Assembly: GCA_025450175.1 (NCBI GenBank)
Contig: JANWHY010000008.1
Location: forward strand, 56,289 to 120,288
Length of the DNA: 64,000 nucleotides
From: Minisyncoccota bacterium
Lineage (GTDB): Bacteria > Patescibacteriota > Minisyncoccia > Phycocordibacterales > Zambryskibacteraceae
Reading direction: 5' to 3'
This document shows, one piece after another, positions 8,335 to 55,017 of the stretch. How positions within the stretch are numbered: position 1 is the stretch's first letter; every line of letters begins with the position of its first letter. Below the pieces are notes generated by a model. The model was not told the origin of the DNA and did no database searches. It saw only the letters and a program-made list of their open reading frames with translations. Both the position numbers and the translations under genes were made by a program.

Positions 8335-8412
8335 AGCCTGTTTAACCCTCCCACAAAAACTTGTTAAAGTAAGGAAAAATGTTTATAATGTGTTTATAAC
8401 TTGTTGAGATAA

Positions 8413-8553: not shown

Positions 8554-8567
8554 TAGCCTCGAGCTTA

Positions 8568-8819: not shown

Positions 8820-8835
8820 AAATTATAATATAGAT

Positions 8836-9549: not shown

Positions 9550-9551
9550 AG

Positions 9552-10796: not shown

Positions 10797-10799
10797 AAA

Positions 10800-14602: not shown

Positions 14603-14606
14603 AATA

Positions 14607-15263: not shown

Positions 15264-15284
15264 TACTTATGATTTTATCACCTT

Positions 15285-39751: not shown

Positions 39752-39788
39752 GAGGGTGGGGAAGTACTCCCCACCCTCTATTTTTTGT
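39752..39788 (+). terminator. rho-independent terminator
   Basis: GAGGGTGGGGaagtactCCCCACCCTCtattttttg. Confidence 0.75.
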
Positions 39789-39802: not shown

Positions 39803-40231
39803 TTGCAGTTAAGATACTTTATATACATGAATAAAAAAGTAATACTTGCTCTAATTGTTGTCGTAGGTATAGCAGGTGGTCTTATTTACAAATTTGGCCC
39901 GATTAGCTCGATTAATAAATTAACTGGTGAAATCACTGAAGTTGGTGAGAATTTTATAGTAGTGAAAGGCTATTTGAGAAAGGAAGGTCGGGTTGTCCAA
40001 TTTATTATTACACCCAATACAGAATTTAATAAATCTATTTTAGCTGTTAGTTCTGAGAAGCTAGCCGCTCCTGGCCCGGTTGCTCCTGAAAGAAGAATAG
40101 TTAAAGGAGAAAAAACTGATCTTGTTGTGGGCAAGGTTTTGGTAGTGTACAGCCAAGATAATTTACTAACCGTGAGTAAGACTGAGGCTATTAAGATTGA
40201 TTATGTAGGAGGTTATGAATTTTCTAAATAA
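39803..40231 (+). CDS. hypothetical N-terminally anchored protein
   Basis: TM VILALIVVVGIAGGLIY; likely true start ATG 39827 (MNKKV); overlaps next gene start. Confidence 0.5.
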   Translation: MQLRYFIYMNKKVILALIVVVGIAGGLIYKFGPISSINKLTGEITEVGENFIVVKGYLRKEGRVVQFIITPNTEFNKSILAVSSEKLAAPGPVAPERRIVKGEKTDLVVGKVLVVYSQDNLLTVSKTEAIKIDYVGGYEFSK

Positions 40232-42206
40232 TTTTATGAATAAGTTAAGATCAAGATTAATATATTTGCAAAAAAGATTTATATGGGTTGGTTTAGCTAT
40301 TGTGTTGTTAGCTAGTTTCTCTACTCACAACTCTATCCAAGCGGTTGCGGATTGGGATTGCATCACACCTTCTGCTGTTCAACAGTGGACCGGAGGTTTG
40401 CAGAATCCTTCAGTTTCAGCTGAGCAGGAGTGTGATGTTGAAACTGAGACTGGTTTTCATGCCACATCATTCTGGGCGAGCTACACAACTGATTATGAAA
40501 CTAGTGGTGAGTCTGCAATCACCTCTACTATGGCGGCTTGCGCCAGTGATGCCGATGGGGGCAATTCTTTGTGTGATTCTGCTGATACTTTTTCCATGTG
40601 TGGAGAGTGCCCCGGAGATCATTCAGGTTCTGCTACTGATAGTTTTATTGTAGACGCTCCTCCAGGCTCTAATTGGAAGATGGGAACTATTTTCATCTAT
40701 GTCTATGCTTCTCCTGACACTTCTCTTGTCTCAGCAGTAGGACAAATGGCTTTAGATCCTGTGCTTGATGATGGTGGAGCTCCTGTTCAATGTAATGATG
40801 GAGCGGATAATGATGGTGATAGTCTGATCGACTTTCCCAATGACCCAGGATGTGATGATGCAGCTGATAATGATGAAACAAATGGCGGGGGAGGACCTAC
40901 TCCTGAGCCCCCACCCCCACCTCCGTCACCAGTACCTCCAGGAACTCTCTATATATTGCCAAATCCAGTCCATGTCACTGTTGGTGAAGAAGTGTGGCTC
41001 TTCCCTTATGAAGATGACCACATTGGCAATGCTAGTGATTGGTACACGGCAGATGACGGTATCGCTACTCCTGTCTATGAGGTGAGTGATAAGGTTAGAG
41101 TCTTAGGAGTTTCTGTGGGTACCACAGAACTCTATTTTAGAGCCGGTATTCCATCAGAGCCGGCGACGATTATTGTTGAAGATCCTACACCACTAGCATG
41201 CCCCTTTTCGGCGCAATCTGGCAGAATAATAGTTAACTTTCCAGCACCCTACATTTATGATTCTGGCCCTCAAATTGATGCCACATCGGGACCTGTACCC
41301 ACCTCTATCCCCGCTGGTACCTACACTGTTAGTGCCTTCTCTTATGACTTTAGGCACTTACCACCAGGGGATGGTAGTCAGCCCCATGAGCAGTGGCTTG
41401 CTCAGTTATTCGATAGTTCTAGCAACCTCATACAAAGTACATCAGTGACCACCGAGTTGGGAGATGGTGAAATAAGTCATACTAATGCCCCTCTGAATGT
41501 GAACTTCGATGTTCCAGAAAATATTGCAAGTGTTAGTGCCTATATGCCGAGTTGGCCTCAATTTATAACTGCTAGCAGTATCACGCCAGGCTGTGTTGCC
41601 TTCGATTTAGTTTCTACGCAAACATTTGACTACGTCCTCTCTAACGCAGGCAATATATCTGTCACAAAATCTGCAACTGAGAATCGTAGCGTACAAAATA
41701 CTGTCACCAAGATACTTACCAATGGTTCAGCTGAGGCCGTGAGCTTGGATGTCTCGGGAGTGCCAAGCGGCGTATCTTATTCCATCTCTGGTATCAACTG
41801 CTCTCCGACTTGTCAGTCTGTAATTACCTTTACCGTTGCGCCAAGCGCTACCACGGGTACCTACCTCATCACTGTTACCGGGACTCCGCTCGGCCATCAA
41901 ACCTCTTTCAACCTCACCATTAACCCGGGCGCATTCGGCGCTACTTCTTGCAGTGTGGATCCTAATCCAAGCTTTGTAGGCAGAACGGCCTCCTTTACCT
42001 CCTCGGCTCAAGGCACCCCTCCAATAACTTACTTGTGGAGTGGTGATGTCCCCAGTCCAGCGCCTACCACGGCAAACTTCACTCATATCTACACCACGAG
42101 TGGACCGAAGAGTGTCACCGTCACCTTCACCGATGGAGATTCCAATATCGAGAGTTGTGTCCTCAACTTCAATGTAGTTCTCTCTCCCAACTTCCGTGAA
42201 TTTTAA
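40215..42206 (+). CDS. large secreted Cys-rich surface protein with Pro-rich linker and C-terminal Ig/PKD-like repeats (putative adhesin)
   Basis: Signal anchor, many Cys pairs, PTPEPPPPPPSPVPPG, C-terminal beta-sandwich-like repeats (ITYLWSGDV...TVTFTDGDSN); directly upstream of pilB. Confidence 0.6.
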   Translation: MNFLNNFMNKLRSRLIYLQKRFIWVGLAIVLLASFSTHNSIQAVADWDCITPSAVQQWTGGLQNPSVSAEQECDVETETGFHATSFWASYTTDYETSGESAITSTMAACASDADGGNSLCDSADTFSMCGECPGDHSGSATDSFIVDAPPGSNWKMGTIFIYVYASPDTSLVSAVGQMALDPVLDDGGAPVQCNDGADNDGDSLIDFPNDPGCDDAADNDETNGGGGPTPEPPPPPPSPVPPGTLYILPNPVHVTVGEEVWLFPYEDDHIGNASDWYTADDGIATPVYEVSDKVRVLGVSVGTTELYFRAGIPSEPATIIVEDPTPLACPFSAQSGRIIVNFPAPYIYDSGPQIDATSGPVPTSIPAGTYTVSAFSYDFRHLPPGDGSQPHEQWLAQLFDSSSNLIQSTSVTTELGDGEISHTNAPLNVNFDVPENIASVSAYMPSWPQFITASSITPGCVAFDLVSTQTFDYVLSNAGNISVTKSATENRSVQNTVTKILTNGSAEAVSLDVSGVPSGVSYSISGINCSPTCQSVITFTVAPSATTGTYLITVTGTPLGHQTSFNLTINPGAFGATSCSVDPNPSFVGRTASFTSSAQGTPPITYLWSGDVPSPAPTTANFTHIYTTSGPKSVTVTFTDGDSNIESCVLNFNVVLSPNFREF

Positions 42207-42251
42207 TTAACTCGCTCTCTTCATCTCGTGCCATGATAGAATTATTTAATC

Positions 42252-44006
42252 ATGCACATTAACGAGCAAGAATTAGAAAGTTTTATGATCGACTCGGGAC
42301 TTGTTACCGAGAAAGACATTACACTTGCTCGCGCAGAGGCGGAGAAAGAGGGGGCACTCCTCGGCAAGGTCCTAGTGCGTAAAGGCTTTCTCTCCGAAGA
42401 TGACCTGCGTAAGATGCAGGCTTATCTCCTGGGTATCCCATTTGTAGATCTTAAAAATCAGCGTCTAGATTTCTCTGTCTTATCGCTCATTCCAGAACCT
42501 GTGGCCAGGAACCACAACATCATCGCTTTCAAGAAGACCAATGACAGTCTCGAAGTAGCGATGCTTGATACCGAAGATCTGACGGCTATCGACTTCGTCA
42601 AGAAGAAGGTTGGTTTGAAGATCTTGCCTCGCCTCACCGACTCCGACTCTATGAAGTGGGCTCTCATGTCGTATCAGAAAACTCTTAAGGCCGAGTTCGG
42701 TGACCTTATCCAAGAAGAGGCTAAATCTCTTTCAAAGGTGGGTCCAGGAGTGGAGAGGGAAGATGTCTCAGAAGTAGAGTTGAAGAAGCTTGCTGCCGAT
42801 ATCCCAGTCGTGCGCATAGTCGACACACTACTTAAGCACGCCATCATCCAAGATGCCTCAGACATACACATCGAACCAGAAGAAGATAAGGTGCTTGTGC
42901 GTTATCGCATCGACGGCATCTTGCGAGATGCTATGGTCCTGCCTAAGAACACAGGCTCTGGTATTACCGCCCGTATAAAAGTGCTTTCCAACCTAAAGCT
43001 AGATGAGAAGAGGGTCCCGCAAGATGGGCGCTTCAAGATTGAGGCTGGCGAAGAAAGGGTCTCCTTCCGTGTCTCCACTCTACCTGTCTACTATGGAGAG
43101 AAGACGGTGATGCGTGTCCTTAGAGAAGGAGCTTCGGGATTTACTCTCGAGAGTTTGGGATTCCACGGACGAGGGTTAGAGGATCTCCATAGCTCAACCA
43201 AGGTTACGACCGGCATGATCTTGGCTACTGGTCCTACTGGTTCGGGTAAGACGACGACACTCTATACCATGCTCGATATTGTAAACACCCCAGATGTAAA
43301 CATTTCTACTATTGAGGATCCGGTGGAGTATCAGATGAAGCGCGTCAACCAAACCCAAGTAAGACCAGAAGTGGGGCTGACATTCTCCAATGGTCTGCGC
43401 GCTCTTGTGCGCCAAGATCCAGACATCATTATGGTGGGGGAGATCCGCGACAACGAGACGGCCTCCCTCGCTATCAACGCCTCGCTTACTGGGCACCTCG
43501 TCTTCTCTACCCTTCACACCAACTCAGCCGCAGGCGCCATCCCACGCCTACTTGATATGAAGGTGGAGCCCTTCCTCCTTGTCTCGACCTTAAATATTGT
43601 CATCGCTCAGCGCTTGGTCAGGAGGCTTGCTGCATCGAAGACCAAATACTTTTTAAACAAAGAAGAGCTCGACACACTTTCCAAATCTGTTTCTCTCGAT
43701 CGCATTCTCACGATATTGAAGGAGGAGAAAATTGTAGATAAGAAAGCTAAGTTCGAAGAAGTGCCATTCTGGAAGCCGATCCCGTCTAAAGATAGCGAGG
43801 ATGGTTACTCGAGCCGCATCGGTATCCACGAAGTTCTACCTGTCACCAACACTATTAAAGAGTTGATTATGAAAGGTGCTACTGCTAATGAGATTGAGGA
43901 GCAAGCCAAGACTGAAGGTATGATGACCATGCTTGAGGATGGCATCTTCAAAGCTGTCCAAGGTGTAACTACTATCGAAGAAGTGCTGCGGGTAATCTCA
44001 GAATAA
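42252..44006 (+). CDS. pilB: type IV pilus assembly ATPase PilB/GspE family
   Basis: N-terminal GSPII_E_N-like domain, Walker A ILATGPTGSGKTTT, Asp/His boxes, ~580 aa. Confidence 0.9.
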   Translation: MHINEQELESFMIDSGLVTEKDITLARAEAEKEGALLGKVLVRKGFLSEDDLRKMQAYLLGIPFVDLKNQRLDFSVLSLIPEPVARNHNIIAFKKTNDSLEVAMLDTEDLTAIDFVKKKVGLKILPRLTDSDSMKWALMSYQKTLKAEFGDLIQEEAKSLSKVGPGVEREDVSEVELKKLAADIPVVRIVDTLLKHAIIQDASDIHIEPEEDKVLVRYRIDGILRDAMVLPKNTGSGITARIKVLSNLKLDEKRVPQDGRFKIEAGEERVSFRVSTLPVYYGEKTVMRVLREGASGFTLESLGFHGRGLEDLHSSTKVTTGMILATGPTGSGKTTTLYTMLDIVNTPDVNISTIEDPVEYQMKRVNQTQVRPEVGLTFSNGLRALVRQDPDIIMVGEIRDNETASLAINASLTGHLVFSTLHTNSAAGAIPRLLDMKVEPFLLVSTLNIVIAQRLVRRLAASKTKYFLNKEELDTLSKSVSLDRILTILKEEKIVDKKAKFEEVPFWKPIPSKDSEDGYSSRIGIHEVLPVTNTIKELIMKGATANEIEEQAKTEGMMTMLEDGIFKAVQGVTTIEEVLRVISE

Positions 44007-44007
44007 T

Positions 44008-45219
44008 ATGGCCTTTTATAAGTACGAAGCTAAAGATAAAGAAGGGAAGATTTATGAGAAAACTGCCGAGGCTCATAGCCGTTACGATATCTACGCTCTC
44101 ATTCGCGAGGAAGGTGGCACTCCTGTCTCTATCCATGAAGTAAGGAAGATCAACCTCTTCGCCTCTTTTGAAAACCTTTTCGGCAATGTCAAAGCCGATC
44201 AGAAAATCAATTTTGCAAAAAATCTAGGGTTAATGATGGACGCCGGGCTCTCGGTCACTCGCGCACTCTCTGTCATGAGTCGCCAGTCCAAGCGTAAGGC
44301 TTTCAAAGTTCTTCTTACTGATATAGAGAACGACGTGAGTAAGGGCGAGACTCTCTCGGCCGCACTAGGTAAGAGGCCCAAGGTCTTCTCAGCCCTCTTT
44401 GTTTCTATGGTTAAGGCGGGGGAGGAGTCGGGGAATCTCTCGGGATCTCTCAACATTGTGGCAAGCCAGATGGAGAAGACTCACCTCTTGGTCAAGAAGG
44501 TGCGGGGGGCTCTCATCTATCCTGGCATCATCATTACGGTGATGCTCATCATAGGTGGACTCCTTCTTATATTTATGGTGCCGGTGATGACAGAGACCTT
44601 TGAGGGCATAGGGGCCCAGTTGCCACTCTCTACTCGTATACTCATTGGCTTAAGTGACTTTCTCATTGCCAATACCATCCTCGTGTTAGGAGGGTTAATG
44701 TTACTAGTACTTGGGGGGATTGCCTTCTTCAAAAGTGCGATGGGTCACCGCGTGGTGGACATAATAGTGCTACGTATCCCAGTGATTGGAGAAATTATCA
44801 AGGAGTTCGAGTCTGCGCGCACTACTCGCACTCTCTCCTCACTTCTTTCTGCCGGAGTAGAAATTATTGCCGCCATGGATACCACTCTCGAAGTAATCCA
44901 GAACCATTTGTATAAAAAAGTTTTGAAAAAAGCCCGGTCTGCCGTAGAGAAGGGCGAGCCTATCTCAACCGTCTTTGCTGAGAATAGTCGTATCTATCCA
45001 CTTTTTGTGGGAGAGATGATGGCCGTGGGAGAGGAGACGGGCAAGATCTCCGAAATGCTTATGAATGTAGCCACTTACTATGAGGGGGAAGTGGATCAGA
45101 AGACCAAGGACCTTTCCACTATCATCGAGCCTATCCTCATGATTATCATTGGTATAGGTGTAGGCTTCTTCGCCATATCCATGCTTGCTCCAACTTATTC
45201 ATTGGTCGACTACATCTAA
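44008..45219 (+). CDS. pilC: type IV pilus platform protein PilC/GspF family
   Basis: Two GspF repeats, polytopic, ~400 aa, coupled to pilB. Confidence 0.88.
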   Translation: MAFYKYEAKDKEGKIYEKTAEAHSRYDIYALIREEGGTPVSIHEVRKINLFASFENLFGNVKADQKINFAKNLGLMMDAGLSVTRALSVMSRQSKRKAFKVLLTDIENDVSKGETLSAALGKRPKVFSALFVSMVKAGEESGNLSGSLNIVASQMEKTHLLVKKVRGALIYPGIIITVMLIIGGLLLIFMVPVMTETFEGIGAQLPLSTRILIGLSDFLIANTILVLGGLMLLVLGGIAFFKSAMGHRVVDIIVLRIPVIGEIIKEFESARTTRTLSSLLSAGVEIIAAMDTTLEVIQNHLYKKVLKKARSAVEKGEPISTVFAENSRIYPLFVGEMMAVGEETGKISEMLMNVATYYEGEVDQKTKDLSTIIEPILMIIIGIGVGFFAISMLAPTYSLVDYI

Positions 45220-45668
45220 TGCATAAGTTTAAAAAATATAATCAAGGATTCACCTTCGTCGAAGTGGTGATCGCTATTGCTATCCTGATCCTCTTCACCG
45301 TTGGTGTGTATCGTGGATATCGAGCAGTCTATGATGCTCTCGCCGCCGCTCACCATAAGGCTCTAGCTGTCGACCTGGTAAACGAGCGCTTCGAGATTAT
45401 TAAGAACCTTCCATACGCAAGTGTTGGCACAGTAGGCGGAGTGCCGGTAGGGGTCATCACTCCGGTGCAAAACACTACTCGGGACAATGTCGCCTTCCGC
45501 ATCACCACTGCAATAGTAAATGTCGATGATCCTTTCGATGGTGTGGCTCCGGCTGATGCCTTCCCTCGGGATTACAAACTCGTAGAACTCAAGGTGGAGT
45601 GTGTCACTTGCCGTATGAGTCCAGTGACTATTACTGGTAGAGTGGCTCCCACGAATCTTGAAAGTTAA
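45219..45668 (+). CDS. type IV prepilin (class III signal peptide)
   Basis: MHKFKKYNQGFTFVEVVIAIAILILF: G/F cleavage motif with Glu+5 and hydrophobic helix. Confidence 0.8.
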   Translation: MHKFKKYNQGFTFVEVVIAIAILILFTVGVYRGYRAVYDALAAAHHKALAVDLVNERFEIIKNLPYASVGTVGGVPVGVITPVQNTTRDNVAFRITTAIVNVDDPFDGVAPADAFPRDYKLVELKVECVTCRMSPVTITGRVAPTNLES

Positions 45669-46272
45669 TATGACAAACTTCCGAACAAAAGGTTTCACCC
45701 TCATAGAATTCCTTCTTTCGGTATCTATTGCTATTGTGGTTGGCTTCGTCGTCTCCACTTTTATGAAAGATATTATCGGCTTGGGGTCGAAGGCTCAGTC
45801 CAACATGACAGCGGTACTCGAGAGTAGGAAGATTTTGTCTGTTATTGTCTCGGAGTTACGCTCCACCATTCCCTCAGCTCTAGGTTCTTATGCTATTGAG
45901 ACTGCCGCCACAAGTTCTGTAACCTTCTTTGCAGATGTAAACTCCGATGACATCGCCGATCGCGTAAGATATTTCCTCGATCCCCCTACTAAAAGTATTA
46001 AGAGAGGAGTGATACTTGCATCTGGTACTCCCCCGGCCTATACCTTGCCAGAAACTTTCTCCACTCTTATCTCAGGAGTATCGAACAGTACCTCTACCCC
46101 AATATTTAATTATTACGATGCCGCTTACGACGGCACGACGAACCCTCTTACATTCCCAATCAATATTACTTCGGTGCGCCTGATTAAGGTGACCGTGTGG
46201 GTCAACGACCCGAAGGGGACAGATCCTGTCATCATGACCTCACAAGCCATGTTAAGAAATCTCAAAGACTAG
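45658..46272 (+). CDS. type IV prepilin-like protein (second pilin)
   Basis: ...TKGFTLIEFLLSVSIAIVVGF class III signal. Confidence 0.8.
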   Translation: MKVNMTNFRTKGFTLIEFLLSVSIAIVVGFVVSTFMKDIIGLGSKAQSNMTAVLESRKILSVIVSELRSTIPSALGSYAIETAATSSVTFFADVNSDDIADRVRYFLDPPTKSIKRGVILASGTPPAYTLPETFSTLISGVSNSTSTPIFNYYDAAYDGTTNPLTFPINITSVRLIKVTVWVNDPKGTDPVIMTSQAMLRNLKD

Positions 46273-46275
46273 AAT

Positions 46276-47727
46276 ATGAAGAATTACACTAAAGGATATT
46301 TATTGATTCAGGTTCTTGTCTTCGGTGCTATCGCTATTGTGGTGATCACTGGGTTGATTGCTTACGCTGGTGCCAATATTAAGCTAGGCCGACGCGTGGT
46401 CTTGTCCGAACAAGCTTTCCAGATGGCTGAGGCAGGACTTGAGTATTATCGCTGGCACTTAGCTCACAATCCCACAGACTACACAGATGGGACCGGCCAA
46501 CCAGGGCCCTATGTAAAACAGTTTAGAGATAAAAATGGCGTACTTCTTGGCACCTTTACTCTTACCATAACCCAACCAGTAATAGGCTCAAGCTTAGTAC
46601 TAATACAGTCTAAGGGCGTCCCTGCAGCTGACCCAACGGTCAAGAGAACTCTCGTTACGAAGTTGGCTATTCCTTCCTTTGCTAACTATGCCTTCGTCAC
46701 TGAGGCGGCCATGCGCTTCGGCTCTGGTACAGAAGTCTTTGGGCCGATACACTCGAATAGCGGTATACGCTTCGACGGTCTAGCACACAATCTTGTCACT
46801 AGCTCTCTCTTCGCTTATGACGATCCAGATCACTCAGGCAACAACGAGTTTGGCGTCCATACTCACGTCAATGCTCCTCCCGGTAGTGGCACTACGGACA
46901 GCTTCCGTTCTCTAGAAGCTCCGTCCAATCCGGTACAGATCAGGCAAGACGTCTTCATGGCTGGGCGCTCCTTCCCTGCACCGACTGTAAACTTCGCCGA
47001 TATCCAGACAGATCTCAATCAGATGAAGATTGATGCTCAAGCTAGTGGTCGTTACTTCGCCGCCTCTGGAGCTCAGGGTTATAGAGTTGTTTTGAAAACA
47101 AATGACACCTTCGATCTCTATCGTGTTAACACTTTGCAAAGTGTGCCAGGAGGTTGCGACGCTTCCTCTGGTCAGTCTGGGTGGGGGTCTTGGAGTACTA
47201 ATGGAGTAACTCTGCTTGGTAACTATCCCTTCCCAGTTAATGGTCTTGTCTTCCTTGCTGACCACACGTGGGTGGAAGGTACTATCAATACAGCAAGGCT
47301 CACCATCGTAGCAGCTCGTCTGCCAGACGATAATACGAGCTTACGCAAATCTATTACTGTAAATGCTGATGTTCGCTACACCAACTACGACGGTACTGAT
47401 GCTCTCGCGCTCATCGCCCAAAACAATATTAATGTCGGCATGAACAGCGCTAATACTCTTAGGATCGATGCCGCCGTGATCGCTCAGTATGGTCGAGTCG
47501 GTAGGTATTACTACGAAGATGATTGTAGTCCTTATGACACACGCAACACTATTACCTTGTACGGGACACTTATCACCGACCAGCGTTACGGCTTCGCCTA
47601 TACCGATGGCAGCGGCTACCAGACTCGTAACCTCATCTATGACTCCTTCCTGCTCTATAGCCCCCCACCATACTTTCCTAAGACAGGGGACTACCACGAA
47701 GTTATTTACTGGAAGGAGATAGACTAG
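46276..47727 (+). CDS. large pilin-like / minor pilin (PilX/PilY-like?) protein
   Basis: Degenerate prepilin N-terminus KGYLLIQVLVFGAIAIVVI (Gln at +5 instead of Glu) followed by a ~450 aa domain. Confidence 0.5.
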   Translation: MKNYTKGYLLIQVLVFGAIAIVVITGLIAYAGANIKLGRRVVLSEQAFQMAEAGLEYYRWHLAHNPTDYTDGTGQPGPYVKQFRDKNGVLLGTFTLTITQPVIGSSLVLIQSKGVPAADPTVKRTLVTKLAIPSFANYAFVTEAAMRFGSGTEVFGPIHSNSGIRFDGLAHNLVTSSLFAYDDPDHSGNNEFGVHTHVNAPPGSGTTDSFRSLEAPSNPVQIRQDVFMAGRSFPAPTVNFADIQTDLNQMKIDAQASGRYFAASGAQGYRVVLKTNDTFDLYRVNTLQSVPGGCDASSGQSGWGSWSTNGVTLLGNYPFPVNGLVFLADHTWVEGTINTARLTIVAARLPDDNTSLRKSITVNADVRYTNYDGTDALALIAQNNINVGMNSANTLRIDAAVIAQYGRVGRYYYEDDCSPYDTRNTITLYGTLITDQRYGFAYTDGSGYQTRNLIYDSFLLYSPPPYFPKTGDYHEVIYWKEID

Positions 47728-47749
47728 GCCCGTCTGATATAATAGGTCA

Positions 47750-48511
47750 ATGGCAAAACCTATACTGGTAGCAAACTGGAAGAACCATCCGAAGTCCTTA
47801 AGAGAAGCAGGTATTATTCTAAAAGGTTTAGGGAGAAGTGCCCCTTTGTATAAGAGGTTAGCCACTTTTATCGCCGTACCCTTCCCATATCTTGACCTCG
47901 TTCTAACTAAGGCACGAAGATTTGCTAGTGTCGCAAGTCAGAACATGGCTCCAGTTCTTCAAGGCACTCACACCGGTGTTGTTACACCGGATATCTTGAA
48001 GAGCTTTGGTACCAAGCTTACAATCCTGGGGCATAGCGAGCTCCGAGCTTTGGGTGAGACAGACGCGGCGGTAAGCGAGAAAGTGCGTATGGCTATCCGC
48101 TCCGGGATCTTGCCTCTGGTATGTGTGGGGGAAAGAGCGGTAGAGGAGGATGGATCCCACTTTGAGTTTGTGCGGCAACAGCTCAAGGCCTCGCTTGCTG
48201 GTTTACGCAAGGCCGATGCCAATCGTCTTATGATTGCTTATGAGCCTATCTGGGCTATCGGGAAACACGCAAGCGATGCTCTGAAGCCCGAGAACTTATC
48301 GGAATCAATAATATTTATAAGAAAAGTTCTGGTAGAAATTTTTGGCAGAACTCTCGCTGAGAAAGTACCTATCCTCTATGGCGGCTCTGTCGAGCCAGCG
48401 GGGGTCGAGGCTCTATGGAAAGTAGGGAAGGTCCAAGGATTTTTAGTAGGTCATGCTTCACTTAGACCAAACGACTTTAAGGCTATTGCCCAAGCACTTT
48501 TATCGAAATGA
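47750..48511 (+). CDS. tpiA: triosephosphate isomerase
   Basis: ANWKNH, IAYEPIWAIG, YGGSV motifs. Confidence 0.9.
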   Translation: MAKPILVANWKNHPKSLREAGIILKGLGRSAPLYKRLATFIAVPFPYLDLVLTKARRFASVASQNMAPVLQGTHTGVVTPDILKSFGTKLTILGHSELRALGETDAAVSEKVRMAIRSGILPLVCVGERAVEEDGSHFEFVRQQLKASLAGLRKADANRLMIAYEPIWAIGKHASDALKPENLSESIIFIRKVLVEIFGRTLAEKVPILYGGSVEPAGVEALWKVGKVQGFLVGHASLRPNDFKAIAQALLSK

Positions 48512-49530
48512 GACCAATTACCGAGGAAAAAAATCTAAAAGATAAGAAGGTACTCGTCCGCGTGGATTGGAGTGTACCTATGGAAGATGGCGCGCTCAGA
48601 AATACTTACCAGATCGATCAATCTCTCTCCACTATCCGCCATCTTAGAGATGCGGGGGCGAAGGTTGTGATACTAAGTCACGCCGAGAATGATACCGACA
48701 CCCTTCTCCCAGTCTATAGATATGTAAATGGTCTTATCCCGATGACTTTCAAGGAGCCGAGTGACTTGGTGCTCATGGATAATCTAAGGAAAGATCCTCG
48801 GGAAAAAGATAATGATCCGGAGTTTGCCAAAGAGTTGGCCAAACTCGGAGAAATCTTTGTAAACGAAGCTTTCCCAGTCTCGCACCGAGAGCATACATCT
48901 ATTGTGGGGTTGCCTAAACTTCTACCAAGCTTTGTTGGTATTGAGTTTGCCCGCGAGATCGAGAATCTCTCTAAGGCCTTTTATCCTAAGAGACCCTTTC
49001 TTTTTATCCTCGGTGGAGCAAAGTTTGAGACCAAGATGCCTCTCTTAGAAAAATTTGTAGACATTGCCGATGAGATCTTCGTGGGGGGAGCGCTTGCCAA
49101 TGACTTCTTCAGAGCTCAGGGCAAGAACGTGGGAAAGTCTGTAATAAGCGGAAAGAATTTCGATCTAACAAAGATTTTTAACTCAGGAAAAATTTTATTA
49201 CCAGAAGATACTATCGAGATGAACGATATGATCCTTGATATGGGGCCACGCTCCTTGGAGGCACTGAAGGCCAAGATTAATGGAGCCAACTTGATTATCT
49301 GGAATGGTCCCTTGGGTCACTATGAGCGAGGTTACAAGGTCTCAACTCTCGAGACTGCCCAAGCCATGGCCAATTCTGGCAAGGAAAGTATCGTAGGTGG
49401 GGGAGATACGCTCGCGGCTGTAGCCGAACTTAAGCTCTTTGATAAATTTACCTTCGTTTCTACCGGTGGCGGCGCCATGCTCGACTTTCTCTCCTCCGGA
49501 ACGTTAGTGGGTATTGAGGCGCTTAAATAA
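48508..49530 (+). CDS. pgk: phosphoglycerate kinase (compact)
   Basis: N-terminal VLVRVDWSVP, C-terminal STGGGAMLDFL; shorter than canonical PGK. Confidence 0.82.
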   Translation: MRPITEEKNLKDKKVLVRVDWSVPMEDGALRNTYQIDQSLSTIRHLRDAGAKVVILSHAENDTDTLLPVYRYVNGLIPMTFKEPSDLVLMDNLRKDPREKDNDPEFAKELAKLGEIFVNEAFPVSHREHTSIVGLPKLLPSFVGIEFAREIENLSKAFYPKRPFLFILGGAKFETKMPLLEKFVDIADEIFVGGALANDFFRAQGKNVGKSVISGKNFDLTKIFNSGKILLPEDTIEMNDMILDMGPRSLEALKAKINGANLIIWNGPLGHYERGYKVSTLETAQAMANSGKESIVGGGDTLAAVAELKLFDKFTFVSTGGGAMLDFLSSGTLVGIEALK

Positions 49531-49890: not shown

Positions 49891-50868
49891 TTAGTACGAT
49901 CTCTCTAAGATTAGCTGACCAAGATTGTCGAAAAGCTTTACTGTCTCATAATCTTCTGCCCACATCTCCCAACCTCTACCAAGGAAAACTCTCCAAGTAT
50001 CTAGAGAGAAGTTCGGGTCAGAAGCATGATAAGCAATGCAGCCATTGTAGCTGAAATGAGCTTTTACGAAGGCAAGACAGGCACTTGAGACGGGCTTCCT
50101 GTCAACGCAATTGGTGCAAACATTCCCGTTTTGATCACGAGTATCAAACTCTGGGATGTGGCAACTACTTAGGCGGTCTATCACATCGCGACAGGCTGTA
50201 TCTAGACTCGCGACTCCGAGCTCATCTTCGGGCATTGGACATTGGCGAGAGAGGGATGGGGTGAAGTTATACTCTGGCAAATCTTCTAGATAGCCAGTGC
50301 AAATATTTTCCTTGAAGCTTGCGAAGTGATAGCGCGAGTCGGATGGCGGTAAACCAGTGGTGATAATAGCCGTCTCTCCGGGCTTAAGTATAATATTTTG
50401 TAATTGATTATTGGTAGAAGGGGATATGGTACGTATGCCCCGAGGTATGAAAGCTGTTTCAGCTGGGAAAAATTTTAAAGAATCACCACCAGTATTGTAG
50501 CCCCTGGTATCTCGACCATTCTTAAGTTGCCAGCCAGTGATATTGAGAGAAGTCTCACCTCTGTTTTCGAGAGTGATGTACTCTTCATATGGCTGGATAG
50601 CGTACTCGGCGTTACCTCGGCCCAAAGTTACGTCGCGGCTGTATGAGCTTACTGCCTGGCTTCCTATCTTGGTCAACTCGCTCTTATCGCTATATGAGGA
50701 AGAGGAGTTATTGTTATAAAGACTTGTTTTATCTGGGTTTGATCTGCCTCCCATGAGTACAATCACAATCAAAACAGCCAAAATCACTACCGCATCCATG
50801 TTGCCAGCACCTCTATTCATGGTTCGATTGCACTCACCATGACCCTGAGGTTTTATCGAATGGGTCAT
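49891..50868 (-). CDS. membrane-anchored protein with lamin-tail-like (LTD) domain
   Basis: N-terminal TM, central ITLENRGETSLNITGWQLKNG...LKPGETAIITTG pattern reminiscent of LTD domains, Cys-rich C-terminus. Confidence 0.45.
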   Translation of the reverse strand: MTHSIKPQGHGECNRTMNRGAGNMDAVVILAVLIVIVLMGGRSNPDKTSLYNNNSSSSYSDKSELTKIGSQAVSSYSRDVTLGRGNAEYAIQPYEEYITLENRGETSLNITGWQLKNGRDTRGYNTGGDSLKFFPAETAFIPRGIRTISPSTNNQLQNIILKPGETAIITTGLPPSDSRYHFASFKENICTGYLEDLPEYNFTPSLSRQCPMPEDELGVASLDTACRDVIDRLSSCHIPEFDTRDQNGNVCTNCVDRKPVSSACLAFVKAHFSYNGCIAYHASDPNFSLDTWRVFLGRGWEMWAEDYETVKLFDNLGQLILERSY

Positions 50869-50886
50869 AAGTCTATCTTATAGCCT

Positions 50887-52527
50887 GTGTTAAAATACTC
50901 AAATATGTATCCCGAGCTATTGGAATCTCTTTTTGCCGCACGCGGTATCTCGAGAGATGAGCAAAACGATTTTCTTAACCCTGACTACAGTAAGCTCCAC
51001 GATCCGAGCCTTCTTCCCGATATTGAAAAGGCTAGCGACAGAGTCATTGCCGCTATGGCTAAGGGTGAGCACATTACCGTCTTCTCCGACTATGATGCTG
51101 ATGGGATCCCAGGAGCGGTAGTGCTCTCGGACTTCTTCCGTCGCGCTTGCTACGACAATATCTCTTTTTACATCCCACACCGACATAACGAAGGTTTCGG
51201 TCTCAACCTCACCGCGATAGAAGAGTGTTCTAGTCGTTCTACCAAACTTCTTATCACTGTAGATTGTGGTGTCTCGGATATAGAAGAAGTGAAGGCTGCC
51301 AATGATGCGGGGATAGACGTTATCATCACCGACCATCATGAGCCGTCTCTTCTAGGTTTGCCACCTGCCTATGCGGTTGTGAATCCCAATAGACCGGATT
51401 CCAAATATCCCTTCCATGGGCTCTGTGGCTCGGCAGTGGTCTTCAAGCTAGTGCAAGCGATTCTTACCAAAGAATCTTTTGGCATTAAACCAGGGCTCGA
51501 GAAGTGGTCACTGGACATGGTCTCGATCGCGACTCTCTCAGACATGGTGCCCTTGGTAGGGGAGAACAGGATCCTCTCGCGCTTCGGCCTAGAAGTATTA
51601 CGTAAGTCTCCTCGCCCTGGTATAAGAGCCTTATTAAGAAGGTTGAATATTGAGCAGAAGAATCTGACCGAAGACGATATCACCTTCATGATCACTCCGC
51701 GCATCAACGCCGCCTCGCGGATGGGAGTACCCGAAGACGCCTTCAACCTCTTGAGAACAGAAGACCAGCTCGAGGCCGAGAGATTAGCCCTTCACCTAGA
51801 GAAGATTAACAATATGAGGAAGGGCGTGGTGGCTGGGATTGTAAAAGAAGCTAAGGGAGAGTTAGCGAAGAGGGAAAAGATTGCTGAGGTCATAGTGATC
51901 GGCAACCCTGAGTGGCGCCCAGCACTCTTGGGACTCGTGGCCAATAGTCTTGTAGAAGAGTATGAGCGACCAGCCTTCGTCTGGGGGAGAGATGGCGATG
52001 GTATGCTCAAGGGCTCGTGCCGCTCTTACAATGGCTATGACTTGTTCCTTCTTATGAATGCGGTTTCGGATACTCTGCTTGAGTTCGGGGGACATAAGGG
52101 GGCGGGAGGGTTCTCCATCACTTTAGAGCAGTTAACAGTCCTAGAAGAGAAGCTCTCAGAAGCTCTTAAGACTCTCTCTAGTGAGGAAGCAAAAGTGGAA
52201 AACAATTTGAGTATAAGTTTGTCTGATATTGGAGAGAGCTTGTGGGGAGTAGTATCTCAGTTTGCCCCATTTGGTATGGGTAACGAGAAGCCCGTCTTCA
52301 AAATCTCAAACGCTCCTATCAAGAGCGTCCGCCAGTTTGGCAAAGCCAATGAACATTTAGAAGTAACTCTCGCCCCCAACATTAAGGCCATCTCTTTCTT
52401 TTCCTCTCCTACTACTTACTCTTTACTACCCACTGCCAACTCTTGTACCCTTCTTGCCAACCTAGAGAAGTCCTACTTCCGCAACCGCCCAGAACTACGT
52501 TTAAGAATTGTTGGTATAGAGCCATGA
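50887..52527 (+). CDS. recJ: single-stranded-DNA-specific exonuclease RecJ
   Basis: DHH motifs (FSDYDADGIPG, ITDHHEP), DHHA1 domain. Confidence 0.9.
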   Translation: MLKYSNMYPELLESLFAARGISRDEQNDFLNPDYSKLHDPSLLPDIEKASDRVIAAMAKGEHITVFSDYDADGIPGAVVLSDFFRRACYDNISFYIPHRHNEGFGLNLTAIEECSSRSTKLLITVDCGVSDIEEVKAANDAGIDVIITDHHEPSLLGLPPAYAVVNPNRPDSKYPFHGLCGSAVVFKLVQAILTKESFGIKPGLEKWSLDMVSIATLSDMVPLVGENRILSRFGLEVLRKSPRPGIRALLRRLNIEQKNLTEDDITFMITPRINAASRMGVPEDAFNLLRTEDQLEAERLALHLEKINNMRKGVVAGIVKEAKGELAKREKIAEVIVIGNPEWRPALLGLVANSLVEEYERPAFVWGRDGDGMLKGSCRSYNGYDLFLLMNAVSDTLLEFGGHKGAGGFSITLEQLTVLEEKLSEALKTLSSEEAKVENNLSISLSDIGESLWGVVSQFAPFGMGNEKPVFKISNAPIKSVRQFGKANEHLEVTLAPNIKAISFFSSPTTYSLLPTANSCTLLANLEKSYFRNRPELRLRIVGIEP

Positions 52528-52985
52528 TCATTATTTATACAGATGGATCTTCAAGAGGAAACCCGGGACCGGGAGGGTGGGCGGGGATTGTTATAGATGA
52601 TAAAAAAGTTAAAGAGATCGGTGGTAGAGAGGATCATACAACAAATAACCGCATGGAGTTAACTGGCGCTATTAGGACATTAGAATCTGTTGACGAAAAA
52701 GATTTAGAAATCTATACAGACTCCGAATACGTTATGAAAGGTATGACCGAATGGGTCCATAATTGGCAGATAAAAGGATGGAGAACTGCAGCCAAGAAAG
52801 CAGTTCTAAATCAGGATCTATGGCAAGAACTTTTAAGAGTAAGTGAAGACAAAAATATTAATTGGAAGTATGTGGCTGGCCACTCTGGAGACAAGATGAA
52901 TGATAGATGCGATGAGATTGCAACGAGCTTTGCGGACGGATTAGCCCCATCCCTTTATGACGGACCGCGTAGCCAATATAAATAA
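52524..52985 (+). CDS. rnhA: ribonuclease HI
   Basis: IYTDGSSRGNPGPGGWAG, TNNRMEL, YTDSEYV motifs; ATGA overlap with the recJ stop. Confidence 0.9.
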   Translation: MIIIYTDGSSRGNPGPGGWAGIVIDDKKVKEIGGREDHTTNNRMELTGAIRTLESVDEKDLEIYTDSEYVMKGMTEWVHNWQIKGWRTAAKKAVLNQDLWQELLRVSEDKNINWKYVAGHSGDKMNDRCDEIATSFADGLAPSLYDGPRSQYK

Positions 52986-54447
52986 GACTCTTGTATTTAT
53001 TGTAGGGGTTCTCTTGGCAGTTTTTATCTCTTCATTCCTTTTTATCCCACCACTATTAAGTGTATTTATAATATTTGTGGGAATTTGCGTGTGGCTATGT
53101 GAGAAGATTTATAAGAAAGAGGTTTCTCAAGAAGTAATTCTGCTTTTACTCATCATTATCTCCGTCGGTTTAGGAAGTTTGCGCTATGGGGTAAAAGATT
53201 TCCACGAAGATGTCCTACCAACTCTTAATGGAATTGTGATAAGTGAACCGGCAGAGAAGGAAAACTCAACTAGATTTATTCTTCGTTCTAGTAATGGTGA
53301 GAAGATAATAGTCAGTACAGACTTATATAGCCCAGTTATGTATGGTGATGAGGTAAGGGTAGAGGGCAAGCTAGATAAACCTGGGGTTATCGAGGAGGAA
53401 GACGGTCGAACTTTCGATTATGCGAAATTCTTATCTAAGGATGATATCTACTACACTCTAAATTTTGGCAAGGTAGAAGTTGTGTCTCGTGGTCATGCCT
53501 CCAGTATAAAGCGCGGATTACTTCGGATAAAAGGAGCTTTGGTCTCGAGGATCAAGGCTATACTGCCCGAGCCAGAATCAAGCTTACTTGCCGGGCTAAT
53601 CGTGGCGGGGAAGGCGGGGATGCCTCAAGCTATTCTTGATGAGTTTAAGAGAGCGGGCGTAATCCACATAGTGGTACTCTCGGGTTACAACATTACTATT
53701 ATTGCCGACTTTATCAGGAAAATTTTTGAACAAATTTTCACCAGAGTTAAGCTTCCTCGTATGCCTCAACTAGCCGCGGGCACTTCCCTCTTCCTTATAC
53801 TCCTCTTCGTACTTGCGACTGGGGCCGAAGCTACGGTGGTTCGGGCGGCTCTTATGGTTTCTACAGTCATTGCGGCTAAACTCTTTGGTAGAAACTACTC
53901 CGCTCATCGCGCGCTCATCGCTGCAGCTTTTATCATGATACTCGTTAACCCCAAGATTCTGGTCTTCGATCCATCCTTCCAACTCTCTTTCATCGCTACT
54001 GCTTCTCTTATTTATATCTCTCCACTTATCTCGCGACTTATTAAAAGGTTGTCTGATAAGTGGGGTGTACGCTCTATGCTTGCAACCACCATTGGCACCC
54101 AGATTGGGGTGTTGCCCTTCCTTATCTACTCTATGGGGCAACTCTCGCTCGTATCTTTTCCTACCAATATTCTTATCCTTCTCGTTATCCCTTACGCCAT
54201 GCTTCTTGGCTTTGCTGCCGCGTTACTTGCCTTTGCCTCACCCATACTTGCTCTACCGATATCATATCTTACACACTTAATCTTGGCGTGGATTCTCTTT
54301 GTAGCAGAACTCTTTGGCAATCTCTCTTATGCTTCTGTTGGTGTACCTACCTTCTCCTTCTCGCTAGTGGTTCTTGCCTATATCGGACTAATTATTGCTT
54401 TGTGGCGTTTGCGTATCTACTTTCGACACTCTGCCAATTTAAGTTAG
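52957..54447 (+). CDS. comEC: ComEC/Rec2 DNA internalisation channel (membrane competence domain only)
   Basis: N-terminal OB/DUF4131-like region, Competence domain with HIVVLSGYNITII, multiple TM helices; lacks a C-terminal MBL domain. Confidence 0.8.
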   Translation: MTDRVANINKTLVFIVGVLLAVFISSFLFIPPLLSVFIIFVGICVWLCEKIYKKEVSQEVILLLLIIISVGLGSLRYGVKDFHEDVLPTLNGIVISEPAEKENSTRFILRSSNGEKIIVSTDLYSPVMYGDEVRVEGKLDKPGVIEEEDGRTFDYAKFLSKDDIYYTLNFGKVEVVSRGHASSIKRGLLRIKGALVSRIKAILPEPESSLLAGLIVAGKAGMPQAILDEFKRAGVIHIVVLSGYNITIIADFIRKIFEQIFTRVKLPRMPQLAAGTSLFLILLFVLATGAEATVVRAALMVSTVIAAKLFGRNYSAHRALIAAAFIMILVNPKILVFDPSFQLSFIATASLIYISPLISRLIKRLSDKWGVRSMLATTIGTQIGVLPFLIYSMGQLSLVSFPTNILILLVIPYAMLLGFAAALLAFASPILALPISYLTHLILAWILFVAELFGNLSYASVGVPTFSFSLVVLAYIGLIIALWRLRIYFRHSANLS

Positions 54448-54994: not shown

Positions 54995-55017
54995 AAAGGA
55001 ATTATAATATAAATATT

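Follow-up and report, generated by a model that had tools for sequence, protein, structure and literature searches.

The window, i.e. the whole stretch of DNA analyzed here, comprises 64,000 nucleotides and contains a gene cluster for a type IV filament. The initial annotation had read this region as a type IV pilus locus. This assignment is borne out by Pfam matches to T2SSE, T2SSF and N_methyl, and all open reading frames were found where they had been placed. The features of the region, in order of position, are:

39752..39778, + strand: intrinsic-terminator-like hairpin with an 11-bp stem (8 GC) and a T-run, at the end of the 213-aa gene upstream
39803..40231, + strand: small membrane protein of 142 aa, first gene of the unit, lineage-specific, without a Pfam or NCBIfam family
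40215..42206, + strand: secreted mosaic surface protein of 663 aa (656 aa from Met8)
42252..44006, + strand: assembly ATPase of the PilB/GspE family with an MshEN-type N-domain (Pfam T2SSE and MshEN)
44008..45219, + strand: polytopic platform protein of the PilC/GspF family (Pfam T2SSF, two repeats)
45219..45668, + strand: prepilin of 149 aa, QGFTFVE (G/FTFVE, Glu5), minor-pilin-like, GspI-sized (N_methyl)
45658..46272, + strand: prepilin of 204 aa, KGFTLIE (G/FTLIE, Glu5), minor-pilin-like, GspJ-sized (motif visible)
46276..47727, + strand: pilin-like protein of 483 aa with the N-terminus MKNYTKGYLLIQVLV
47750..49530, + strand: tpiA and pgk, after a 22-nt gap to the pilin genes and with a 4-nt overlap
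49891..55875, no single strand: LTD-like protein (−), recJ, rnhA, comEC channel part, sodA (−) and a stand-alone ComEC-type MBL domain

Organization and conservation of the operon

The hairpin at 39752..39778 is likely the 5' limit of the pil transcription unit. No comparable terminator was found between 42206 and 49530, and the intergenic spacing from 39803 to 49530 ranges from -17 to +45 nt. The pil operon is probably co-transcribed with tpiA-pgk and, in this lineage, also with the upstream secreted surface protein. For the 142-aa protein no homologue was found in 80 related loci; the gene at the matching position in the syntenic locus L001 is unrelated.

PilB matches T2SSE with 399.1 bits (1.8e-119, cut-off 24.9) and MshEN with 47.4 bits, and PilC matches T2SSF with 186.9 bits (1.5e-55). 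The NCBIfam models for PilB (TIGR02538, 518 bits) and GspE (506 bits) both score below their equivalog cut-offs, so that the assignment is made at family level only. GspE and GspF models score nearly as well on the two proteins as the pilus models. A tblastn search of the window yielded no paralogue of either PilB or PilC.

The two genes that follow encode canonical class-III prepilins (GFTFVE and GFTLIE), as had been proposed. The 149-aa protein exceeds the cut-offs of both N_methyl (27.1 versus 21.2 bits) and TIGR02532 (17.8 versus 16.3 bits). The 204-aa protein stays just under them (18.7 and 15.2 bits, respectively) with its GFTLIE motif visible. In most relatives the ortholog of the 149-aa prepilin is the N-domain of modular pilins of ~600 aa. 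Profiles of the orthologs of both pilins match PDB entries in the pilin N-terminal helix only. Roles like those of GspI and GspJ may be assigned to them on the basis of gene order and size only.

No further canonical prepilin N-terminus was detected by a regular-expression search of all six frames of the window. Since both prepilins are orthologous to conserved minor-pilin-like genes, this search gave no major pilin. Pfam scans of those ~50 open reading frames of the window that are 130 aa or longer revealed no prepilin peptidase (PilD, Peptidase_A24) and, together with tblastn, no PilT (second T2SSE) and no PilM/N/O, in agreement with the initial annotation. The reduced pilus suggested there does not follow. 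A stretch of 64 kb is too little for it, the operon holds minor-pilin-like subunits only, and the absence of the other pil genes and of a major pilin holds for the window. For CPR bacteria these pilus components have been described as widespread and, in numerous genomes, as co-localized (PMC6744442).

The order pilB-pilC-pilin-pilin-483 is retained in nearly all of 80 related loci, within a longer conserved series that continues with tpi-pgk-…-recJ-rnhA-comEC. In all 79-80 related loci with detected prepilins the 483-aa gene strictly adjoins the two prepilin genes. Across the related loci the 483-aa protein has a median identity of 57%, as compared with 49% in PilC and 40-42% in the 149- and 204-aa pilins. 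This higher conservation suggests a conserved ligand or interface. The 483-aa family has at least 577 species matches (1577 clusters), and its members are 54-70% identical across many candidate phylum-level lineages. In the window recJ, rnhA and a split comEC (channel part and separate MBL nuclease domain) are found 3-8 kb downstream of the pilin genes. Among the 80 related loci recJ is present in 49 and comEC in 41, and recJ/rnhA/comEC lie 3-7 kb downstream in 41-49. As functional evidence this synteny is weak, since tpi and pgk show it to the same extent and small genomes of this type generally retain their gene order.

The 663-residue surface protein

The 663-aa protein is very acidic (pI about 4.0), contains 14 Cys residues and has a single hydrophobic segment at its N-terminus. 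The proposed overlap with the preceding small gene depends on the chosen start codon: it amounts to 17 nt with the start of the 663-aa form and is gone with the NCBI start at Met8 (nt 40236; P0121, 656 aa). The protein is built up from the following elements, and the poly-Pro linker and the many Cys residues of the initial annotation are among them:

40791..40880, + strand: single C-x-DG-x-DNDGD-x-LIDFP-x-DPGC unit, Asp-rich and Cys-bounded (aa 193-222)
40893..40937, + strand: poly-proline linker PTPEPPPPPPSPVPP (aa 227-241)
41199..41612, + strand: domain bounded by Cys329 and Cys460, with likeness to the repeats of P0124 (aa 329-466)
41625..42203, + strand: conserved C-terminal module, probably of an Ig-like and a PKD-like domain, ending in ...P-N-F-R-E-F-COOH (aa 471-663)

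The N-terminal two thirds are species-specific, and no full-length homologue of the N-terminal 465 residues was found among 5.8 billion proteins. Unrelated large secreted proteins carry the Asp-rich motif as a tandem array of ~10 units. P0124, a protein of 1020 aa that also has He_PIG and PG_binding_1 domains, contains three tandem copies of the domain of residues 329-466 (30-34% identity, E 6e-16 to 6e-11).

The C-terminal module is 44% identical to the syntenic protein of L001. A profile of 10 orthologous tails matched the Ig domains of T4 Hoc (3.8e-8) and a collagenase PKD domain (7e-4), in line with the Ig/PKD-like end seen earlier. For the single sequence the Pfam scores are below the cut-offs (PKD_4 21 bits versus 27, PKD 15.8 bits versus 23.5, with a weak PKD match at residues 583-645), and a single-sequence AF2 model was unusable (pLDDT 33). 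The tail of the module conforms to P-x3-E-F. Secreted proteins with this EF tail were found almost only directly upstream of pilB, in about 16 related loci. The module thus adjoins pilB in relatives, which marks the protein as linked to the pilus genes rather than as a generic surface protein. Only about a quarter of the related loci carry such a gene, so that the description of the locus as led by this protein is not supported.

The protein had been described as signal-anchored. Syntenic relatives carry cleavable signal peptides (e.g. ...PSSASA/Q in L001), so that it is more likely secreted. Searches with Pfam and NCBIfam, the position of the sole hydrophobic segment and the -NFREF end gave no LPXTG motif, SLH domain, C-terminal transmembrane segment or lipobox. 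A putative role as an adhesin is plausible.

Predicted fold of the 483-residue protein

The 483-aa protein can be subdivided according to its predicted structure:

46276..46671, + strand: pilin domain with Gly7, Gln at +5, a helix (residues 8-62) and four strands (residues 79-131) (aa 1-132)
46672..47697, + strand: β-rich and solenoid region, presumably inserted (aa 133-474)
47698..47727, + strand: final strand (aa 475-482, by predicted strand order) after an LLYxPPPxFP motif, followed by the stop codon

No match to Pfam or NCBIfam and no pilin signature was obtained. The degenerate prepilin signal noted in the initial annotation is a conserved trait. In an alignment of 39 homologues Gly7 (position -1) is kept in at least 90% of the sequences, and the residue at +5 is mostly Gln, in a few cases Pro or Asn and never Glu. 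Glu at +5 was noted once when 73 loci were roughly counted. An AEAG..YYRWHLAH motif is invariant in the pilin domain, and the N-terminus is similar to that of the neighboring prepilin. PilX_N is the only Pfam family matched repeatedly by the relatives, with subthreshold hits in 5 out of 39 (best E 0.071); the protein of the window itself matches neither PilX_N nor T2SSK.

The AF2 model (pLDDT 76.9) comprises an N-terminal helix of 55 residues, a four-stranded sheet and a β-rich domain. Residues 240-474 are confident and residues 156-236 poor (pLDDT < 50); overall, confidence is low for one third of the model. A Foldseek search against the PDB resulted in ComZ as the sole significant match (E 7.9e-8, probability 1.00), with low TM-scores of 0.21-0.24. 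The helix and the four-stranded sheet match GspK, XcpX and S. sanguinis PilA. According to the model the protein is a two-domain protein, in which a GspK-resembling pilin fold carries a large β-solenoid like those of ice-binding proteins, as in ComZ. Judged by strand order, the last strand may rejoin the pilin sheet, again as in ComZ. At the sequence level no likeness to ComZ or to any solved pilin was found past the helix: the best hit of the 39-homologue profile against all PDB sequences was an unrelated protein (E 0.28), and ComZ did not appear among the hits up to E 10.

The giant pilin of the initial annotation is thus predicted to fold like the pilus-tip DNA receptor of Thermus. Its tip had been called non-standard. 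A residue other than Glu at +5 is a known hallmark of cap pilins of the GspK/PilX/ComZ type, and the fold matches one already described. The protein is acidic (pI 5.6; 5.0 for the solenoid region), a property that gives no hint of DNA binding. Obvious basic patches are absent from ComZ as well (PMC6561018).

Proposed mechanism and comparison with known systems

The region is probably a conserved operon for the core of a type IV filament in a bacterium of the Paceibacteria (Parcubacteria, CPR), in which three minor pilins that look like a GspI/J/K-type set form a tip complex. Systems of this kind have been described before, and the locus adds one more example. We propose the following mechanism. 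The three minor pilins, with their GspI/J/K-like order and size (149, 204 and 483 aa), would build a priming complex on PilC that ends up at the tip of the filament. The 483-aa protein would top this complex; Gln, Asn or Pro at +5 fits a cap subunit, for which Glu5 is not needed. In that position it would present a rigid β-solenoid domain, like ComZ in Thermus. The major pilin, the prepilin peptidase, PilM/N/O and any PilT would be supplied from other parts of the genome. The variable N-terminal part of the 663-aa protein is probably exposed and ligand-binding, and its Ig/PKD module with the -P-x3-E-F end would link it to the pilus or to the envelope.

As to the ligand, we tentatively suggest that the filament tip serves to capture DNA from outside the cell, which would then enter the split ComEC/RecJ route encoded nearby, with binding of a host-cell surface polymer as the main alternative. 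CPR bacteria are thought to scavenge DNA via type IV pili and ComEC (PMC6744442). ComZ has been argued to be a tip DNA receptor that acts together with the adjacent PilA2 (PMC6561018).

It is less likely that the same machinery carries a host-attachment device, in which the β-solenoid binds or cuts a conserved host surface polymer and the 663-aa protein, as an accessory adhesin, determines host specificity. β-Solenoids are typical of polysaccharide-binding and -cleaving proteins, and DNA binding by ComZ was termed unusual for such a fold (PMC6561018). Host binding in Saccharibacteria is mediated by PilX2, a large tip pilin, and mutants of T4P-2 are normally competent (PMC11623550). The acidity of the 483-aa protein and the variable, modular, Ig/PKD-rich and adhesin-like character of the 663-aa protein point in the same direction. 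Identities of 54-70%, however, fit diverse hosts poorly unless the ligand is universal, and ComZ is the sole significant structural match, with tapirin-type matches far weaker.

A short T2SS- or Com-like pseudopilus, acting as a piston with a GspI/J/K-like cap that exports or displays the EF-tailed protein via its C-terminal module as recognition element, appears improbable. The operon would suit it with an ATPase, a platform and three minor-pilin-like subunits, the absence of a major pilin, PilT and PilMNO from the 64 kb, the near-equal GspE and GspF scores and the position of EF-tailed genes just upstream of pilB. Type IVb pili export or dock operon-encoded proteins in such a manner (CofJ on CofB, TcpF on TcpB). 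Yet the whole pilin set is kept in about three quarters of the related loci without an EF-tailed gene nearby, the operon also lacks a major pseudopilin (GspG/ComGC-like), and pili are a known feature of CPR cells. Since these cells reportedly have neither an outer membrane nor PilQ (PMC6744442), there is no role in them for a classical T2SS.

That the 483-aa protein is instead an uncleaved, membrane-anchored β-helix surface protein merely encoded beside pilin genes is very improbable: it has no Glu5 and no pilin signature, a third of its model is of low confidence, and its cleavage is putative, since ComZ (PMC6561018) and the TM7x PilX proteins (PMC11623550) were missed by pilin predictors as well, but its nearly invariant Gly at -1, its prepilin-like N-terminus, its GspK-, XcpX- and PilA-like helix and sheet and its constant place beside two prepilins all speak for a filament subunit.

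The locus can be compared with several known systems. Among secreted partners encoded at pilus loci, tapirins (Caldicellulosiruptor) and CofJ/TcpF (type IVb pili) have no detectable similarity to the 663-aa protein. Its conserved element is the C-terminal Ig/PKD module ending in -EF and not an N-terminal docking peptide.

The Gram-positive competence pseudopilus ComG resembles the operon in that pilin genes come after an ATPase and a platform gene, likewise in cells that have no outer membrane. ComEC is encoded nearby here, and weak NCBIfam likenesses to ComGA, ComGB, ComGD, ComGE and ComGF were observed, all below cut-offs. In contrast to ComG, there is no ComGC-like major pilin, PilB retains a long MshEN-type N-domain and the putative cap pilin exceeds ComGG about fourfold in size.

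The locus shares three successive pilin genes of growing size with GspK-GspI-GspJ (T2SS) and PilX/PilV/PilW (T4aP), and the faint PilX_N signal among the relatives fits these complexes. The inserted domain of GspK, however, is α-helical, whereas the 483-aa protein is predicted to carry a β-solenoid, and the operon lacks PilY1 as well as a fourth pilin of the GspH/FimU type.

Nanosynbacter lyticus TM7x (Saccharibacteria) is another CPR bacterium with type IV pili. Its PilX1 and PilX2 are, like the 483-aa protein, the largest pilins of their loci, with a non-canonical signal peptide, a bulky C-terminal accessory domain and a proposed place at the tip; for this group, large PilX pilins at the tip that lack a canonical PilD signal have been documented (PMC11623550). 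Their accessory domains are a β-jelly roll and an RCC1 β-propeller in place of the predicted β-solenoid, the lineage here is Paceibacteria, and PilX2 is tied to host binding, not to competence.

The closest counterpart is ComZ, a competence-associated tip pilin of Thermus thermophilus HB27 (PDB-entry 6qvi). With a chain of 518 residues it is alike in size, it is likewise missed by pilin sequence models, and its gene directly follows small minor pilins (PMC6561018). Its reported fold neighbors are a GspK-like pilin domain and a solenoid like that of ice-binding proteins (PMC6561018). The likeness comes from the predicted fold and not from detectable sequence similarity. The operon here also differs in that it includes pilB and pilC and continues into tpi-pgk, and its host is a CPR bacterium reported to have neither outer membrane nor secretin. 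The predicted ComZ-like fold is a concrete candidate for how ultrasmall CPR bacteria might capture DNA or hosts.

Organization and conservation of the pil operon

ORF calls together with Pfam and NCBIfam searches located PilB, PilC, two prepilins and a 483-aa protein, all at the sites assigned to them in the initial annotation. In the search with T2SSE, T2SSF and N_methyl profiles, PilB, PilC and the 149-aa prepilin were matched and the 204-aa prepilin remained just below the cut-off.

Genes of the pil unit
39803-40231 (+): 142-aa ORF
40215-42206 (+): 663-aa ORF, sub-threshold PKD match only
42252-44006 (+): 584-aa PilB/GspE ATPase (T2SSE 1.8e-119, MshEN 1.9e-12)
44008-45219 (+): 403-aa PilC/GspF platform protein (T2SSF 1.5e-55)
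45219-45668 (+): 149-aa prepilin, QG/FTFVE (N_methyl above cut-off)
45658-46272 (+): 204-aa prepilin, KG/FTLIE (just under cut-off)
46276-47727 (+): 483-aa ORF, no Pfam or NCBIfam model matched
47750-48511 (+): tpiA
48508-49530 (+): pgk

The gaps between these genes range from -17 to +45 nt. A terminator-like hairpin (11-bp stem followed by a T-run, 39752-39778) lies directly before the 142-aa gene, and no second hairpin of similar strength was found downstream within the pil unit. Because of the short gaps and a hairpin at the 5' end only, the genes from the 142-aa ORF through pgk probably form a single transcription unit. The described overlap of the 663-aa gene with the preceding 142-aa gene holds for the chosen start and is uncertain, because the NCBI protein begins at Met8. 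The gene further upstream (39096-39737, +) encodes a lipoprotein-like 213-aa protein with a signal ending in ...LTAC, a HELGH zinc-protease-type motif and a faint eCIS_core match (E = 0.061). It was ruled out as part of the pil system by the strong terminator in between. Neither the 142-aa nor the 213-aa protein has homologues in 80 related loci, and by this comparison the latter is lineage-specific.

The absence of pilD, pilT and pilMNO from the 64 kb was borne out, as the ~40 other long ORFs yielded no Peptidase_A24, no second T2SSE and no PilM, PilN or PilO match in Pfam. A tblastn search revealed no paralogue of PilB or PilC in the window. Since a six-frame scan of the window found no further prepilin, the operon supplies the motor together with subunits for a tip or for priming, and no fibre subunit. 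To call this a reduced pilus, as had been suggested, is unsafe from a 64-kb window: for CPR, a wide occurrence of PilD, PilT, PilM/N/O and pilins has been reported, with co-localization in numerous genomes (PMC6744442).

A word-indexed search with the 483-aa protein returned 3550 homologues at E<=1e-3. The best 120 of these share 57-80% identity with it at a length of 470-520 aa; homologues with a named source belong mostly to Parcubacteria-type MAGs and are mostly labeled 'hypothetical'. An exhaustive HMMER search reached 1577 clusters (50% identity), with E-values below 1e-30 for 359. Relatives are encoded on at least 577 stretches (contigs from one genome per species) from Zambryski-, Nomura-, Taylor-, Giovannoni-, Vogel-, Wolfe-, Yanofsky- and Harrisonbacteria and 'Paceibacterota'. 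We mapped the window proteins onto 80 loci from this set. The recurring order is pilB-pilC-pilin-pilin-483-tpi-pgk-(hit)-recJ-rnhA-comEC, with pilB present in 71 loci, both pilins in 78-79, tpi in 60, recJ in 49 and comEC in 41. Median identities across loci are 68% for PilB, 57% for the 483-aa protein (slightly inflated by the selection of loci on its similarity), 49% for PilC, and 42% and 40% for the two small pilins. Even with this inflation, the 483-aa protein is clearly more strongly constrained than pilins usually are.

The tpiA-pgk pair (47750-49530) starts 22 nt after the gene of the candidate tip pilin with no terminator between. Both genes keep this place in 56-60 of the 80 related loci, so that pilus-tip genes and central glycolysis appear to be on a shared transcript.

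A split comEC follows downstream (52957-54447, + and 55018-55875, +), with sodA (54392-54994, -) between its parts. The 496-aa part corresponds to positions 82-385 of the TIGR00361 ComEC/Rec2 model (DUF4131 and Competence), and the 285-aa metallo-beta-lactamase protein to positions 411-661 (E = 2.2e-41). According to these matches, the ComEC nuclease domain is a stand-alone neighbor in the window. The same arrangement of comEC, a small ORF (-), sod (-) and the metallo-beta-lactamase gene is found in the related locus L001. Between the HIT hydrolase gene and recJ, a membrane-anchored 325-aa protein (49891-50868, -) combines a sub-threshold Lamin Tail Domain (31.6 bits, cut-off 34.3) with a Cys-rich C-terminal part. 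With the window protein as tblastn query, it was detected at this position in the closest relatives only (7 loci). Bacterial Lamin Tail Domains often occur alongside extracellular nucleases or ComEC.

The remaining window contains ruvB, yebC and ruvC (175-2169), as well as dnaN and dnaA (-), separated from yidC by ~500 bp (5662-8334, 8334-8836); the origin of chromosome replication probably lies in this region. Between 36790 and 37329 are six tRNA genes, arranged as two divergent groups, with Arg-TCG and Gly-GCC on the (-) strand and Pro-CGG, Pro-GGG, Pro-TGG and Gly-TCC on the (+) strand, including three proline isoacceptors in tandem. A conjugation-like type IV secretion cluster extends over ~9552-19789 (-).

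Assigned genes of the type IV secretion cluster
10800-11696 (-): T4SS_pilin protein
12722-14602 (-): VirB4/TraG-type ATPase
15285-15719 (-): PrgI-family protein

Large ORFs of 414, 229, 218, 285, 771 and 306 aa in this cluster belong to no family. The cluster probably represents the monoderm-type T4SS that a recent preprint describes from Patescibacteria (bioRxiv 10.1101/2025.01.22.634366).

The 483-aa protein and the two adjacent small pilins

We aligned 39 homologues (mean column identity 60%). Almost all of them have Gly7, and the degenerate prepilin signal with Gln at +5 noted in the initial annotation holds for most; some have Pro or Asn at this position, and none of the 39 has Glu. Little or no variation is seen in the motifs AEAG-x-EYYRWHLAH, GPIHSN-x-GIRFDG and LLY-x-PPP-x-FP. 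Evidence for a pilin from sequence is scant. The one Pfam family with repeated matches is PilX_N (5 members out of 39, best E = 0.071), and within the window the N-terminus resembles that of the neighboring 204-aa prepilin (tblastn, E = 0.026). A profile of the family against PDB sequences gave noise only.

Structure prediction had been proposed for both the 663-aa and the 483-aa protein and was successful for the latter: AlphaFold2 on the 39-homologue alignment resulted in a mean pLDDT of 76.9 and a pTM of 0.70, and the model of the 663-aa protein, calculated from no alignment, was unusable (pLDDT 33). The 483-aa model comprises a helix (residues 8-62), four strands (79-131), a poorly modeled region (156-236), a confident β-rich domain (240-474) and a last strand (475-482). 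The sole significant Foldseek match is ComZ, the pilus-tip DNA receptor of Thermus (E = 7.9e-8, probability 1.00). TM-scores are low (0.21-0.24), as would be expected of a model with two domains that is disordered over one third. In ComZ, an ice-binding-protein-like solenoid interrupts a GspK-like pilin domain ahead of its last strand, and the fold neighbors of our model are the same pair as reported for ComZ (PMC6561018). ComZ is missed by PilFind, binds DNA and the adjacent minor pilin PilA2, and has been argued from steric considerations to occupy the pilus tip (PMC6561018).

We conclude that the 483-aa protein is likely a minor pilin of the cap type, akin to GspK, PilX and ComZ. A subunit topping a filament is expected to lack Glu5, as known from the GspK-I-J complex, and the missing Glu5 of the 483-aa protein fits such a topmost position. 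That it is a non-filament anchor instead has a small probability.

Six histidines (His61, 64, 159, 186, 195 and 197), located in or near the poorly modeled region, are invariant in close homologues. In a wider alignment (31-59% identity) most of them are lost; a metal or nuclease site was therefore rejected for the family as a whole, and no catalytic function is proposed. The motifs kept in this alignment are xSNxGxxxD, AEAG..Y.W.L and PPPxFP only, and invariance is limited to G54, W60, N161, a few glycines and the PPP motif.

For the 149- and 204-aa pilins, profiles of orthologs matched only N-terminal pilin helices in the PDB. Based on gene order and size, we infer that they are GspI- and GspJ-like partners. 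In ~70 related loci (L008-L082, e.g. L013:7549-9369) the first pilin is ~600 aa long, with a 150-aa pilin domain followed by CarboxypepD_reg, PEGA and prealbumin-like β-sandwich domains. It has only 145-157 aa in the window and in its closest relatives, L001, L003, L004, L006, L007 and L030, where it breaks off precisely at the end of the pilin domain; in the window's clade nothing is left of the lost C-terminal domains after it. The shortening is a clade-specific loss. Six Wolfebacteria-like loci (L038, L042, L046, L049, L050 and L063) contain an extra gene of 540-750 aa (~7540-9860, locus coordinates) between the first pilin and the 204-aa homologue, with an fn3 match in one of them. In the 754-aa product of L038 an N_methyl motif lies internally, at residue 558, pointing to a fusion or to run-through in the gene call.

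EF-tailed secreted proteins upstream of pilB

The 663-aa protein is a mosaic. A signal sequence is followed by a very acidic, Cys-containing region that has no homologues and by one C-x-DG-x-DNDGD-x-LIDFP-x-DPGC unit, which forms tandem repeats in unrelated secreted proteins. A poly-Pro linker connects this unit to a Cys-bounded domain, three copies of which occur in a 1020-aa protein with a peptidoglycan-binding domain. The C-terminal module (~195 aa) shares 44% identity with the end of a 621-aa protein that a relative encodes at the syntenic position; the N-terminal part of that protein is unrelated.

Further members of this family were gathered from the related loci by tblastn and ORF scans. 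A profile of ten tails matched phage T4 Hoc Ig domains (3.8e-8) and collagenase PKD domains (7e-4), and all ten end in P-x3-E-F or P-x3-E-Y. We screened 1312 ORFs (at least 150 aa) of the window and related loci for a terminal -EF, which occurs in 19. Of these, 16-17 code for signal-peptide proteins of 374-1149 aa and lie 0-4 kb upstream of pilB in the orientation of the pil genes.

Loci with EF-tailed proteins
Window, tail at 42186-42203
L001, L006 (two in tandem), L010, L012, L024, L027, L030
L043, L045, L047, L052, L060, L067, L068, L071

After the PKD-like domain the consensus reads ...[IV]-x-[IV]-x-P-x-[FYV]-x-E-F-COOH; the N-terminal parts are unrelated. No known sorting signal matched the -P-x3-E-F tail. 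The clustering of 16-17 of the 19 ORFs upstream of pilB ties the 663-aa protein to the pil genes and argues against a generic wall protein unlinked to them, an option considered in the initial annotation. An EF-tailed gene is missing from about three quarters of the related loci and so does not belong to the fixed gene set of the operon. It is present in all five short-pilin loci whose upstream sequence can be read, but these loci represent a single clade.

The proposed filament tip, its possible ligand and known systems

The evidence best supports a type IV filament that would be tipped by a complex of the 149-, 204- and 483-aa proteins, with the ComZ-like solenoid as cap. As ligand, DNA is suggested by the ComZ precedent, by the downstream recJ, rnhA and split comEC, and by the nucleotide auxotrophy of CPR (PMC6744442); by this analogy DNA may be bound at the tip, an assignment that we consider tentative and somewhat short of an even chance. 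Synteny with recJ and comEC was rejected as strong proof of a role in competence, since tpi and pgk are equally syntenic. This leaves the evidence for DNA weak, as do the acidic character of the 483-aa protein (pI 5.6) and the case of PilX2, a large tip pilin of Saccharibacteria that serves in host binding, with unaffected competence in T4P-2 mutants (PMC11623550). A conserved host-surface molecule, for which PilX2 is a precedent, is a rather unlikely ligand.

A modular, exchangeable tip, for which the whole reading is improbable, would use the 149/204/483 cap as a universal socket. EF-tailed proteins would plug in via the Ig/PKD module ending in -P-x3-E-F, and their hypervariable N-terminal parts would set the target of the pilus (host envelope, DNA or particles). 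The clade in which the first pilin was cut from ~600 to ~150 aa would have moved the adhesin function wholly to the docked protein. A secretion pseudopilus in place of a pilus has a small probability.

Returning to the filament with a ComZ-like cap, the 483-aa family would make directly testable the assumption that CPR/Patescibacteria feed on foreign DNA via type IV pili and ComEC (PMC6744442). The family also provides a name for a 'hypothetical protein' in a fixed Paceibacteria operon. We know of no DNA receptor named for CPR/Patescibacteria, and no relevant paper in the literature searched links ComZ to either. The pil-linked family of EF-tailed secreted proteins, flagged here as a second family, is new. 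Cargo docking on pili is, to our knowledge, so far known only from type IVb (CofJ, TcpF); a modular tip, if true, would be cargo docking by a new C-terminal signal. Type IV pili of CPR, large non-canonical tip pilins and ComZ have all been described already; what is new is the link by which the ubiquitous, unannotated 483-aa family of Paceibacteria is, as modeled, the structural counterpart of ComZ.
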